DNA of 32,000 nucleotides from the NCBI RefSeq assembly GCF_000017845.1, contig NC_010546.1, positions 3,240,001 through 3,272,000 on the forward strand, read 5' to 3'. Under the pieces are notes generated by a model. That model was not told the origin of the DNA and made no database searches. It saw only the letters and a list, made by a program, of their open reading frames with translations. Positions 3,312 to 5,867 of this stretch are shown piece by piece. The DNA comes from Crocosphaera subtropica ATCC 51142 (GTDB lineage: Bacteria; Cyanobacteriota; Cyanobacteriia; Cyanobacteriales; Microcystaceae). Made by a program: the position numbers and the translations under genes. How positions within the stretch are numbered: the stretch's first letter is position 1; every line of letters starts with the position of its first letter.

Positions 3312-3689
3312 ATGTTAAAACTAACTTATACCCATAATGGATTTTATATTGATTATCTTCAAGAGTCCTTAGAGGCTTGGGTAACAACTCGTGTCATCTT
3401 AGCGTTACGGTCAGGAACCAGTCTTTGTGTTGAACCGAGTAGTGCTTCTTTTTTAATTTCTTTAGACTTACCTTATGTCAATCAACTATTAGAAGATGTG
3501 AACGAATTTACAGGGGAAATTGTCGAGGTTAACCGTTGTGATGAAGAAGCGATGGAAGTTGTTCTAGAAGGTACTTGGTTAGGTTCGGATATCGCTAGTG
3601 AAGAAGGGATATTTGTCTGTCGTTTAAGCGATCGCTTAGAATCTCTTCTGTATCAAATTTGGCAAGAGTCGCCGGTAAAGATTAATTAA
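3312..3689 (+). CDS. Conserved hypothetical protein
   Basis: 125-aa ORF with host-like composition that contains a HIP1 site (3628-3635). No family recognised. Confidence 0.75.
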   Translation: MLKLTYTHNGFYIDYLQESLEAWVTTRVILALRSGTSLCVEPSSASFLISLDLPYVNQLLEDVNEFTGEIVEVNRCDEEAMEVVLEGTWLGSDIASEEGIFVCRLSDRLESLLYQIWQESPVKIN

Positions 3690-3714: not shown

Positions 3715-3744
3715 AGTTGGGTTTCGTCCCTCTACCCAACCTAC
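3715..3744 (-). repeat. REP copy A
   Basis: The plus strand reads AGTTGGGTTTCGTCCCTCTACCCAACCTAC: a 7-bp stem GTTGGGT/ACCCAAC plus a terminal CTAC, which is GTAG on the minus strand. Confidence 0.85.
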
Positions 3745-3783
3745 AAGATTGCGCACCGCGAAGCTGATTTCTTCGAGATCGCA

Positions 3784-4392
3784 CTAAAACTCAATAATCA
3801 AATTATATTTAATACTAGCTAAACAAAAATTGTATAAGCATAAAAGAAGCATTTTTTCAAATCCTAATGGATCATTTTCAAGCTCATAAATTCTTTGCTC
3901 ATAGAGAAGTTCAAAATCAGGAGTATAATTACCTAAATCTAGTTTTAGCTTATCTGCTAATTCTGTTAATTCATCTTTTAACTGAATACTAGACCCCATA
4001 CTTGTTAGAAAATCATCGGGAAGAAGTACATCTTTAAAATCTATAGGAACATAGCAACCAAAATAGTTATGATGCCAGAGGAGGTGAGACTGTTTTTCTG
4101 TAAAAATTTCCTTAGCTAAAGATAAGAAAAATATTCGTTCACCAATAAAAAGAGAATCACTTTCAGGAGTCCAATCAGGATTAGCTTCTAATTCAAGAAA
4201 AACATTTTTTAAAAGATTAATATCTGAAAAACTTATATTCAGCCAGGGTAAGACAATATCATCTGGTAATCTGTCAGGGCAGAAATTATAAGTTGATAAA
4301 CCAATTTGTTTTAATTGCTCATTTATATCAGTAATTTTATCCAAAATTCCATCATATATTTTATATCCTAGTAATCTAATAATTAATGACAT
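3784..4392 (-). CDS. Hypothetical protein, AT-rich orphan gene bracketed by inverted REPs
   Basis: 202 aa counted from Met48 of the 249-aa track ORF (MSLIIRLLGYKIYDG...). The upstream 47 codons run through REP B and the 3' end of the RAYT gene, so I discount them. No family recognised; it contains LLWHHNYFGCYVPIDF. Confidence 0.65.
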   Translation of the reverse strand: MSLIIRLLGYKIYDGILDKITDINEQLKQIGLSTYNFCPDRLPDDIVLPWLNISFSDINLLKNVFLELEANPDWTPESDSLFIGERIFFLSLAKEIFTEKQSHLLWHHNYFGCYVPIDFKDVLLPDDFLTSMGSSIQLKDELTELADKLKLDLGNYTPDFELLYEQRIYELENDPLGFEKMLLLCLYNFCLASIKYNLIIEF

Positions 4393-4408
4393 AGCGATCG
4401 CTGATCTC

Positions 4409-4437
4409 GTAGGTTGGGTAGAGGAACGAAACCCAAC
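4409..4437 (+). repeat. REP copy B (opposite orientation to A, C, D and E)
   Basis: GTAGGTTGGGTAGAGGAACGAAACCCAAC, located 17 nt downstream of the RAYT stop codon. Confidence 0.85.
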
Positions 4438-4453
4438 AAAACAATATAAGAAA

Positions 4454-4996
4454 TTACTCCATCCCAACATTAACATCGAAAATAGGAATTTGTGAACTTC
4501 CCCAGTTAACATCATAAACACCGCGCTGCACATAACGATAAAAACTGGAATATTCCCAATCTTTTGGACAGGAAACTAACCCATGACGAACGGGATTATA
4601 ATGAATATAATCCGCATGATTCATAAAATCTTGTTCATCTCGAATTAAATGTTCCCAAAATCGTCTTTGCCAGATAGCCCTTTCTTGTTTACTTTGTCTT
4701 GAAGTGGAAACGTTGCTTTGATATTTGCGATCGCATCTACGGCTAAACCAACTTTTAATTAACCGCCACCGAGTCGAAAACTCAGCATCTCCTTGGGGTA
4801 ATGTCCAAATACAATGAAGATGATTAGGTAAAATAACAATAGCATCAATGACGAAAGGATGTTTTTCCATGACGCTACGAAATGAATCTCGCAATAGAGC
4901 TATATTTTCTGCTTCACAGAGAAATGAACGTCGATTATGGGTAACTAAGGTAAAAAAATAGCTACTTCCTGGTTGTTTGGCCCGACGATATTGCAT
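4454..4996 (-). CDS. REP-associated tyrosine transposase (RAYT, IS200/IS605-like Y1 HUH transposase)
   Basis: 180 aa. HUH motif in ILPNHLHCIW and the catalytic-Tyr motif ADYIHYNPVRHGLV. It is flanked by inverted REPs B and C. Confidence 0.9.
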   Translation of the reverse strand: MQYRRAKQPGSSYFFTLVTHNRRSFLCEAENIALLRDSFRSVMEKHPFVIDAIVILPNHLHCIWTLPQGDAEFSTRWRLIKSWFSRRCDRKYQSNVSTSRQSKQERAIWQRRFWEHLIRDEQDFMNHADYIHYNPVRHGLVSCPKDWEYSSFYRYVQRGVYDVNWGSSQIPIFDVNVGME

Positions 4997-5140
4997 AAAT
5001 TAATCATACTCAAGATGTTATGGGTTGGGTTTCCTTCCTCTACCCAACCTACTGTCTGGTTGTTTGGCCCGACGATATTACATAAATTGATCATACTCAA
5101 AATGTTATGGGTTGGGTTTCCTTCCTCTACCCAACCTACT
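4969..5140. repeat. Tandem duplication (2 units, period 87 bp) of the RAYT 5' end, its upstream region and a REP (REP C 5024-5052, REP D 5111-5139)
   Basis: CTGGTTGTTTGGCCCGACGATATTGCATAAATT...GTTGGGTTTCCTTCCTCTACCCAACCTACT at 4969-5053 recurs at 5056-5140 with 3 substitutions. In copy 2 the RAYT start reads ATG-TAA instead of ATG-CAA. Confidence 0.9.
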
Positions 5141-5189: not shown

Positions 5190-5408
5190 ATGTCACAAAC
5201 CCTTCAATTTCATCAAATTTTAGAAATAATTGACGATCTTTCTCTTGATGAACAAGAGGATTTAATTAACATTATTAGACATAGACAAATCGAAAAAAGA
5301 CGAGAAGAAATTGCTGAAAATATTAACCAAGCTCGTCAAGATTATCAACAAGGAAAAGGATTTCGAGGAACGATTGATGATATTATTGCAGAATTAAACA
5401 ATGACTAA
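5190..5408 (+). CDS. Putative type II antitoxin
   Basis: 72 aa and acidic. It overlaps the downstream RelE-like toxin gene by 8 nt (ATGACTAA). Confidence 0.75.
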   Translation: MSQTLQFHQILEIIDDLSLDEQEDLINIIRHRQIEKRREEIAENINQARQDYQQGKGFRGTIDDIIAELNND

Positions 5409-5685
5409 TTTAATTCTAAGCTCTTCCTTTAAACGCTCTTTTAAAGCTCTTATAAAAAGAAAACCTGACTTCAAGCAAAAAATTGAATCGAAATTAAGAC
5501 TATTAGCTGATGATCCCTATAATCCGATATTACGCACCCACAAACTCAAAGGAAAATTATCAGGGGCTTGGGCTTGTACAGTTGAATATGATTGTCGTAT
5601 TGTGTTTTGCTTCGAGCAAAATCAAGAAACTTTAGAAGAAGAAATAAATTTAATCGATATTGGCACGCATGATGAGGTTTATTAA
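5401..5685 (+). CDS. Type II toxin, RelE/ParE superfamily (RelE/StbE/YafQ-like mRNA interferase)
   Basis: 94 aa. FKRSFKALIKRKPD...LRTHKLKGKLSGAWACTVEYDCRIVF...LIDIGTHDEVY matches the RelE/YafQ pattern. Confidence 0.85.
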   Translation: MTNLILSSSFKRSFKALIKRKPDFKQKIESKLRLLADDPYNPILRTHKLKGKLSGAWACTVEYDCRIVFCFEQNQETLEEEINLIDIGTHDEVY

Positions 5686-5691
5686 GATGAG

Positions 5692-5832
5692 GTTTACTTT
5701 GTCTTGACGTGGAAACGTTGCCTTGATATTGGCGATCGCATCGACGGCTAAATCAACTTTGAATTAACCGCCACCAAGTTGAAAACTTACCATCACCTTG
5801 GGGTAACGTCCAAATAAAATGAAGATGATTAG
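5692..5832 (-). pseudogene. Internal fragment of a second RAYT gene
   Basis: A 141-nt ungapped match to 4687-4827 of the intact gene, with about 13 mismatches. It covers NHLH(HUH)...STSRQSK with an in-frame TGA where the intact copy has TGG. Both ends are truncated. Confidence 0.85.
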
Positions 5833-5838
5833 TGATGA

Positions 5839-5867
5839 GTTGGGTTTCGTTCCTCTACCCAACCTAC
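5839..5867 (-). repeat. REP copy E
   Basis: The plus strand reads GTTGGGTTTCGTTCCTCTACCCAACCTAC. It lies 6 nt beyond the RAYT fragment. Confidence 0.85.

Follow-up and report, generated by a model that had tools for sequence, protein, structure and literature searches.

Repetitive extragenic palindromes (REPs) enclose an AT-rich gene beside a REP-associated tyrosine transposase (RAYT) in the cyanobacterium Crocosphaera subtropica ATCC 51142, within a 32,000-nt stretch of contig NC_010546.1 (positions 3,240,001 to 3,272,000 of the forward strand) that was analysed as a whole and is referred to hereafter as the window. The locus lies between a gene of the alr0857 family and trpB, and the enclosed open reading frame (ORF) codes for a protein of 202 aa. 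It is probable that this ORF is an orphan Rhs-immunity gene, which reached the locus by recent horizontal transfer and occupies a hypervariable slot bounded by pre-existing, head-to-head REPs of the GTAG type. The REP-gene-REP block would accordingly be the product of a capture and not a transposon moving as a unit. Simple coordinates refer to the window and those preceded by C1 to the genome; compared genomes carry G numbers, and compared loci or contigs carry L numbers.

The ORF (3784..4392, minus strand, read from 4392 to 3784) is placed between REP A (3716-3744) and REP B (4409-4437), with gaps of 39 nt on the REP A side (3745-3783) and 16 nt on the REP B side (4393-4408). The two REPs are inverted and differ by a single base: REP A is GTTGGGTTTCGTCCCTCTACCCAACCTAC on the plus strand, and REP B is the same sequence on the minus strand, with one mismatch. 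A preliminary description, made from the letters of the DNA, had pointed out this tight enclosure of one gene beside a RAYT, and its coordinates were found again, except that REP A, correctly identified as a repeat ending at 3744, had been started one base early, at 3715 instead of 3716. The 29-nt repeat has five copies in the window, at 3716(+), 4409(-), 5024(+), 5111(+) and 5839(+) in the GTTGGGTTTCGTCCCTCTACCCAACCTAC sense, and none in 100 shuffled controls. Its canonical form, (GATCTY)GTAG-GTTGGGT-11 nt loop-ACCCAAC, is that of a GTAG-tagged REP; the pattern from GTAG to ACCCAAC is kept in 20 of the 22 copies in the genome, ATCTY stands immediately 5′ of GTAG in about 10 of the 22, REPs A and B among them, and folding as single-stranded DNA predicts a hairpin with a 7-bp stem in all four copies folded. 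The canonical hairpin is on the minus strand for REP A and on the plus strand for REP B, the two being head-to-head with both GTAG heads toward the ORF.

The 39-nt gap belongs to the REP A repeat. Positions 3745..3786 (minus strand) form a 42-nt head extension, TAGTGCGATCTCGAAGAAATCAGCTTCGCGGTGCGCAATCTT, in which a small second hairpin is predicted and which provides the TAG stop codon of the ORF; the extension recurs ahead of the REP at C1:3228263, behind a ParE-like toxin gene, and also follows REP A in the metagenome variant L044, where the cargo is different. The cargo is thus little more than the bare ORF. The sequence TAGTGCGATCTC has only three occurrences in the genome. A candidate for a general junction motif, TAGTGCGATC, was rejected, as it marks no more than 3 of 22 copies, a small REP subfamily. 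At the other end of the ORF, the REP B head flank AGCGATCGCTGATCTC (4393..4408, plus strand) is composed of a HIP1 site and GATCTC, and its C|T dinucleotide stands 1 nt ahead of GTAG.

The alr0857-trpB interval was compared in 12 congeners and in the metagenome contigs L042-L044. REP B, which is the 3′ flanking REP of the RAYT, is kept at the same position after the RAYT stop codon in G012, G011, G010, G013 and G002, and the AGCGATCGCTGATCTC flank ahead of it is also present, with other cargo, in G012, G011 and G013. REP A, resident behind the alr0857-family gene, has its tail flank and a GGGAC loop variant in common with G013, G009 and contigs L042-L044. The sequences at the REP heads change from one lineage to the next. 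G013 and contig L043 carry REP A, a 121-aa ORFan on the other strand, REP B, the RAYT and a REP; G009 and contig L042 carry REP A and then other genes; and in contig L044, REP A is followed by a fourth sequence. The 121-aa ORFan of G013 is unrelated to the 202-aa ORF and is absent from 40 other genomes searched. A pentapeptide-repeat gene lies at the head of REP B in G011, G012 and G002, and a DUF29 gene precedes REP B, the RAYT and a REP in G010. Three species (G008, G007 and G004) have an empty site, made of approximately 45 nt with another small hairpin and then the trpB leader. The interval of G005, a genome without RAYT and with four REP copies, holds an insertion sequence (IS) of the TnpB type, with a TnpB/OrfB_IS605-type gene (L023 792-2075).

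REP A therefore adjoins four different sequences in four lineages, and in every comparison the identity between genomes breaks 0-9 nt from a GTAG head or at the REP-linked extension. The orthologous locus exists in relatives without the cassette, a comparison that the preliminary description had proposed, and the ORF is not a resident of this site in relatives. Because orthologues of both REP A and REP B accompany unrelated cargo in relatives, the REPs predate the ORF, which was inserted between pre-existing REPs rather than the REPs having been inserted around a resident gene. Two side observations concern hairpins at this locus. At the empty sites (L008, L011 and L013 for G008, G007 and G004, respectively), the hairpin reads GGGGTCAA-N5-TTGACCCC, preceded by GTAG in G008, and could be a terminator or another type of REP. 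In G011 (L020 1229-1257), a REP with REP B-type flanks has its 11-nt loop inverted, which suggests recombination inside the hairpin stem.

The origin of the ORF is revealed by a copy in G005, with which it shares 95.5% nucleotide identity, compared with 86.2% for trpB and 80.4% for alr0857 in the same genome pair. The homology begins at CTATG, 2 bases before the start codon, and stops three codons before the stop codon, so that the common DNA extends from approximately position 3793 to 4394; the flanks are unrelated, and the last codons and the TAG stop of the ORF come from the 42-nt REP A head extension. Since this identity exceeds the 80-86% of core genes and the homology is limited to the ORF, the ORF is a recent horizontal arrival. 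At the level of sequence comparison, these data demonstrate its foreign origin, the import of the ORF only, the capture and the REP-bounded junctions. The two copies differ with a dS of 0.084 and a dN/dS of 0.42, the frame being intact and a cluster of replacements lying at residues 52-59. As had been described, the cargo is far more AT-rich than the flanking genes (27.8% GC, versus 37.6% for the alr0857-family gene, 37.9% for the RAYT and 44.5% for trpB), and its product is acidic (pI 4.4).

A large protein collection contains 15 homologues of the ORF at 44-66% identity, almost all of 201-219 aa and with an MSLII start, so the ORF is not an isolated reading frame but a member of a family conserved elsewhere, whose invariant residues include S102, H103 and H107. 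Because the MSLII start is shared in the family alignment, the true start of the ORF is the ATG at 4392; the public gene call (P0001) gives 230 aa (3784-4533), starts in the 3′ end of the RAYT and reads across REP B. None of the 16 family members matches a Pfam model, including the immunity models of the Imm and SUKH types, and NCBIfam, PADLOC and PHROGs give no match for the ORF. The AlphaFold2 model of the product is confident (pLDDT 89, pTM 0.89); a fold search with it against PDB and BFVD returned nothing below E=1, and a profile compared with PDB sequences produced nothing better than a chance match (E=0.2). The route to a family through Pfam and structure prediction, proposed at the outset, thus led to no assignment. 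As the fold searches are empty, the ORF product cannot be given a known fold of the immunity, anti-CRISPR or DNA-mimic type, and in the absence of a family or fold match the function of the ORF must be read from its genomic context. The family is a conserved and unclassified one.

This context is provided by one Rhs C-terminal toxin domain, directly 3′ of which an ORF homologue is found in 6/6 toxin loci examined (L002, L029, L031, L039, L040 and L041, three of them chosen from the toxin side). In the three toxin-side loci, the next gene is an ORF homologue, 35-55% identical. The ORFs upstream of the homologues share a C-terminal domain of approximately 240 aa (61-68% identity) joined to an Rhs core, and a search with this domain retrieves 76 proteins, most of them with RHS/YD-shell Pfam domains; the domain is widespread in cyanobacteria. 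In the congener G005, a 241-aa ORF directly precedes the copy, which is 93% identical; next come an ORF that bears the Rhs core motif (YDPESGRF) and a gene of the ankyrin type. Homologues in metagenome contigs and in Kamptonema sp. SIO1D9 likewise lie within Rhs/YD arrays that include ankyrin genes. Examples of the toxin domain (L002 41-766, L029 1660-2592, L031 1-870 and L039 2501-3418) have no Pfam match. Its invariant or near-invariant residues read PDF...GDxK...Q, and its structural model (pLDDT 80) weakly matches XPF, restriction-endonuclease and CdiA-CT folds (best E=0.02). It is tentatively regarded as a PD-(D/E)xK nuclease, mainly from the PDF...GDxK motif, the fold matches being too weak for a firmer reading.

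Because a family member follows this one Rhs toxin domain in all six loci, the ORF is most likely an immunity gene, and the 202-aa protein is most likely an immunity protein against an Rhs toxin, which fits the earlier remark that it has the size of toxin-immunity proteins. It would neutralise the cognate toxin delivered by neighbouring Crocosphaera-like strains. In C. subtropica itself, tblastn finds no toxin domain and no adjacent Rhs core; the gene of the window is an orphan immunity gene in the sense that no matching toxin or Rhs core is detected in the genome. Together, the toxin domain and the ORF family make up a pair of Rhs toxin and probable immunity protein that is new and unclassified, in nitrogen-fixing cyanobacteria of marine origin.

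The genome-wide distribution of the REPs bears on how the ORF came to lie between two of them. The family comprises only 22 copies (at up to five mismatches), dispersed in the intergenic DNA of C1, which is low for a REP family; congeners have 4-36 copies per genome. At least 13 of the 22 copies adjoin cassettes of the toxin-antitoxin (TA) or immunity type. At C1:583877-585306 (584 kb), two VapBC pairs are each followed by a REP, in direct orientation, and at C1:3226621-3229448 (3227-3229 kb), a DUF726/ParE-like/PIN array holds three REPs, also in direct orientation; further REP-adjoining cassettes are HicAB, BrnTA, an MNT nucleotidyltransferase and XisI. Similar small-gene arrays punctuated by REPs occur in G007 (L033), G012 (L034 and L035) and G009 (L036). 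The REP at C1:1425605 marks a breakpoint of rearrangement and synteny, with an orthologous REP in G012 at L003 1203-1235: groEL lies upstream in G012 and the head side of the REP is occupied by a paralogue of the ORF (55% identity), and in C. subtropica an acyl-AMP-ligase-like gene lies upstream, with 193 nt lacking an ORF paralogue. A comparison of the two sides of the REPs was made with the 300-nt flanks of all 22 copies against five congeners, scoring presence anywhere in the genome and not synteny. The head side was present in 35 of 110 cells and the tail side in 54 of 110; for eight REPs, the head side was missing from all five genomes and the tail side was found in some, the reverse case being seen for none. 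This asymmetry is only suggestive, because the loci are few and partly dependent and synteny is ignored.

It is possible, although we regard it as rather unlikely, that the association is a passive coincidence, in which the alr0857-trpB interval would be a tolerant hot spot, the ORF would have entered by illegitimate or flank-homology recombination, and the REPs would be bystanders. An unrelated TnpB-type IS did enter the same interval in G005, without REP or RAYT. Both REP tails adjoin conserved genes, which makes head-side variability trivial at this locus, and the polarity of REPs relative to neighbouring genes is mixed genome-wide; a strict cassette polarity, in which a gene would everywhere be followed by a head-first REP, was rejected for that reason. 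In Pseudomonas, moreover, REPs mark old, stable DNA and new genes fall in REP deserts (PMC3390384). The REPs of Crocosphaera considered here show the opposite pattern, lying beside strain-variable cassettes. A bystander role accords poorly with junctions that fall 0-9 nt from a GTAG head or at the REP-linked extension in four independent REP A variants and five REP B variants, with the proportion of REPs that adjoin TA- or immunity-type cassettes, with the eight-to-zero asymmetry of heads and tails, and with the rearrangement breakpoint at the C1:1425605 REP, where the paralogous ORF of G012 lies on the head side.

Several observations weigh against an orphan immunity gene captured between resident REPs, and they concern both the capture and the function. 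The head/tail asymmetry was scored as presence anywhere in the genome, from a small number of partly dependent loci, and the 22 copies do not share one polarity with respect to the genes beside them. Junctions at REPs are partly expected, since there are conserved genes at the tails and no conserved intergenic sequence apart from the REPs. The closest relatives, G012 and G011, have no REP A at this position, which implies that the history of the slot involved more than one event. As to function, the immunity role is read from gene neighbourhood alone, for a family without a database match or a fold match in PDB or BFVD, and the toxin resembles PD-(D/E)xK nucleases only weakly in fold (best E=0.02).

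If REP heads served as joining points, a precise capture could follow from the chemistry of the RAYT. TnpA(REP) cuts and joins single-stranded DNA at a C|T located 5′ or 3′ of a REP, with GTAG as a guide, and remains bound to the 5′ phosphate, after which any 3′-OH can be joined (PMC8266576, PMC3333891); such cleavage and joining are known only for the enzymes of E. coli, S. maltophilia and Marinomonas (PMC8266576). In a first route, the RAYT would cleave and transfer strands at the C|T beside GTAG, and the 5′-phosphotyrosine on the REP side would be attacked by a foreign 3′-OH. With head-to-head REPs on opposite strands, each foreign 3′ end would be ligated to one REP head, yielding the observed architecture. 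In a second route, recombination between REP-linked sequences of donor and recipient would give the same picture, as would illegitimate recombination in a tolerant interval. The RAYT is the putative agent of the capture. A broader proposal is that the low-copy GTAG REPs and the RAYT of Crocosphaera form a gene-capture system comparable to integrons or rAID-1 clusters, in which the RAYT would cut at C|T and join 3′-OH ends, and head-to-head REPs would trap fragments, reshuffling orphan immunity and TA cassettes; stated in this general form, the proposal is doubtful.

A role of the ORF other than Rhs immunity, be it anti-phage defence, anti-defence, a part of a TA system or a decaying remnant, seems quite improbable. 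Such a role could be accommodated by the want of any family assignment or fold match, by the position of the ORF among TA cassettes and by the several homologues that are orphans away from Rhs genes (L017, L030 and L003); it is opposed by the homologue placed directly downstream in each toxin locus examined, by the ankyrin-type immunity genes and Rhs fragments that surround homologues, and by an intact frame that keeps the family-invariant residues at the dN/dS given above. Least probable of all is a composite element moved by the RAYT, either REP A-ORF-REP B or REP C-RAYT-REP B-ORF-REP A with IS200/IS605-like same-strand ends: a lone gene is indeed tightly enclosed by inverted REPs next to the transposase of these REPs, REP C and REP A are oriented alike on one strand on either side of the RAYT and the ORF, and HUH enzymes can move hairpin-bounded single-stranded DNA (PMC8266576), but the genome contains a single copy of the block, neither the ORF nor the REP-ORF-REP unit being found a second time when it was searched, seven other loci with ORF homologues yielded a GTAG hairpin in the congener G012 alone and in none outside the genus, relatives have orthologous REPs around other cargo, the RAYT of this locus has been inherited vertically, and REPtrons are reported not to transpose as units (PMC6006769). 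The RAYT-mobilisable cassette of the preliminary description, with the further copies it led one to seek, is thereby left unsupported, and its other suggestion, a gene captured into a REPIN, is likewise a poor fit because the GTAG family forms no REPINs in this genome: the 22 copies are singletons or short direct arrays, and the only inverted neighbouring pairs are A/B and B/C.

The genes around the slot are as follows. The conserved left flank is the alr0857-family gene (3312..3689, plus strand; NCBIfam NF045647, E=2e-45), orthologues of which were found in 12 of 13 congeners searched. The RAYT (4454..4996, minus strand; NCBIfam NF047646, E=7e-63, and PF01797) belongs to the Y1 HUH family, with the HUH (HLH) and YIHYNP motifs visible in the sequence. 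It lies between the inverted REP B (4409, canonical on the plus strand) and REP C (5024..5052, canonical on the minus strand, its 5′ flanking REP), which are tail-to-tail around it in the classical REPtron arrangement; the same layout is found in G010, G013, G011 and G012. Its nucleotide identity follows that of core genes (93.7% versus 94.1% for trpB with G012, and 88.4% versus 90.6% with G010); the RAYT and REP B are therefore old residents of vertical inheritance. The RAYT orthologue of G010 (L026 3966-4505) has one in-frame TAA, yet this genome has the most REP copies (36) of the genus sample. The RAYT of the window is co-directional with the ORF and upstream of it, with 61 nt between the RAYT stop codon and the ORF. 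A promoter scan, which was uninformative overall (12 sites versus 11.8 expected), placed no site between the two. Read-through transcription of the ORF from the RAYT is inferred from the common strand, the 61-nt distance and the lack of a promoter-like site between them; REP B would then be an intercistronic hairpin, and REP A with its extension a 3′ structure of the read-through transcript.

Beyond the RAYT, the order is REP C, an 87-bp duplicate with REP D, a TA pair, a fragment of a second RAYT and REP E. REP D (5111..5139, canonical on the minus strand) lies within an 87-bp tandem duplicate of the RAYT 5′ end and REP, which is also present in G011 and G012. The TA pair, the nearby RelE-type system of the preliminary description, is an antitoxin with a RelE/YafQ-type toxin (5190..5685, plus strand; PF15738 and TIGR02385) between REP D and REP E, and was not found at this locus among the relatives examined. 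The second-RAYT fragment (5693..5839, minus strand; aa 55-103, 77.6% identity by tblastn) has one in-frame TGA and is fused to REP E; in G012, the second RAYT is truncated differently (aa 58-180) and is found on the opposite side of the cargo. These differing remnants indicate that the locus underwent repeated REP-RAYT-REP duplications and deletions. REP E (5839..5867, canonical on the minus strand) is proximal to trpB and forms the right boundary of the island: its junction, REP|agacTATGGAAAAAAGT, is common to all RAYT-bearing relatives, and TATGGAAAAAAGT is seen at empty sites. The RAYT has a single immunity cassette to one side and a single TA cassette to the other, both bounded by REPs, and the cargo differs between species; the REP-punctuated TA arrays are elsewhere in the genome, away from the RAYT.

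The locus belongs to the REP/RAYT (REPtron) class, and not to the REPINs, the IS200/IS605-type transposons or the integrons. REPtrons, in which a RAYT, or TnpA(REP), is flanked by GTAG-type REPs, are described in E. coli, Stenotrophomonas and Marinomonas (PMC3333891, PMC8266576, PMC6006769), and earlier work on Cyanothece strains, 51142 among them, had reported GTAG-15/16 REPs (PMC3733652). What the Crocosphaera locus has in common with REPtrons is one RAYT of vertical descent, in which the HUH (HLH) and YIHYNP motifs are present, and REPs made of a palindrome behind a 5′ GTAG; inverted copies flank the RAYT, and many copies have a C|T next to GTAG. It differs in the very low copy number (22) and the prevalence of singletons without REPINs, in the protein-coding gene between one flanking REP and an extra REP, and in the location of REPs mainly by strain-variable TA or immunity cassettes rather than in old core DNA. 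REPINs are REP doublets forming a hairpin (Bertels and Rainey 2011, PMC3116915). REPs A and B resemble one in being two adjacent, inverted REPs of the same family near a RAYT, but the spacer is coding and of approximately 664 nt (3745-4408), versus tens of nt, and the A/B doublet is repeated nowhere in the genome.

The functionally nearest described system is the rAID-1 cluster of Bacteroidales (Ross et al., bioRxiv 10.1101/471110), where orphan immunity genes of low GC follow a recombinase gene in the same direction and have repetitive sequences between them. In both cases, a low-GC orphan immunity gene lies co-directionally and immediately downstream of a gene for a DNA-strand-transfer enzyme, repeats occupy the gene borders, and the immunity gene has diverged from toxin-adjacent cognate copies in other strains. 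However, rAID-1 clusters have a XerD-type tyrosine recombinase and up to 31 immunity genes, compared with a Y1 HUH transposase (the RAYT) and a single gene here, in a cyanobacterial host and for an Rhs-type toxin. Orphan rhs-CT/immunity modules are also a feature of the Rhs loci of enterobacteria. The ORF family is similar to these in that its members occupy the place of the immunity partner in Rhs cassettes, both main and orphan (L002, L029, L039 and L040), but the immunity gene of the window is alone and far from any Rhs gene, with no Rhs core detected in the genome. In chromosomal integrons, attC hairpins are recombined as single strands and cassettes are rich in TA genes. The likeness lies in promoterless single-gene units with imperfect hairpin borders beside an enzyme gene, and in strain-variable content in which TA cassettes are common; here, by contrast, there is no IntI, attI or Pc promoter, the hairpin polarity relative to genes is non-uniform, and the adjacent enzyme is a Y1 HUH transposase instead of a recombinase of the IntI or XerD type. 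A full-text literature search of incomplete coverage returned no paper linking RAYTs or REPs to Rhs or immunity cassettes. What is new here is a REPtron with a REP-bounded, strain-variable cargo slot that holds an unclassified orphan gene, most likely for immunity.

RAYTs are widespread transposases regarded as 'domesticated', what their hosts gain from them is an open question, and REPs are usually seen as cargo-free markers of old, stable DNA. In C. subtropica, a precisely REP-bounded slot beside a REPtron changes its content between sister species and now holds a freshly imported gene of probable orphan immunity function, so REPs may mark the places where foreign genes get joined in. If it is true that REP heads are joining sites, RAYTs and REPs would gain a role at the level of the host, namely the acquisition of defence and immunity genes. 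The model is simple to test, as the components are short and an assay for the enzyme already exists. Lastly, the Rhs toxin/immunity pair points to contact-dependent antagonism among Crocosphaera strains.

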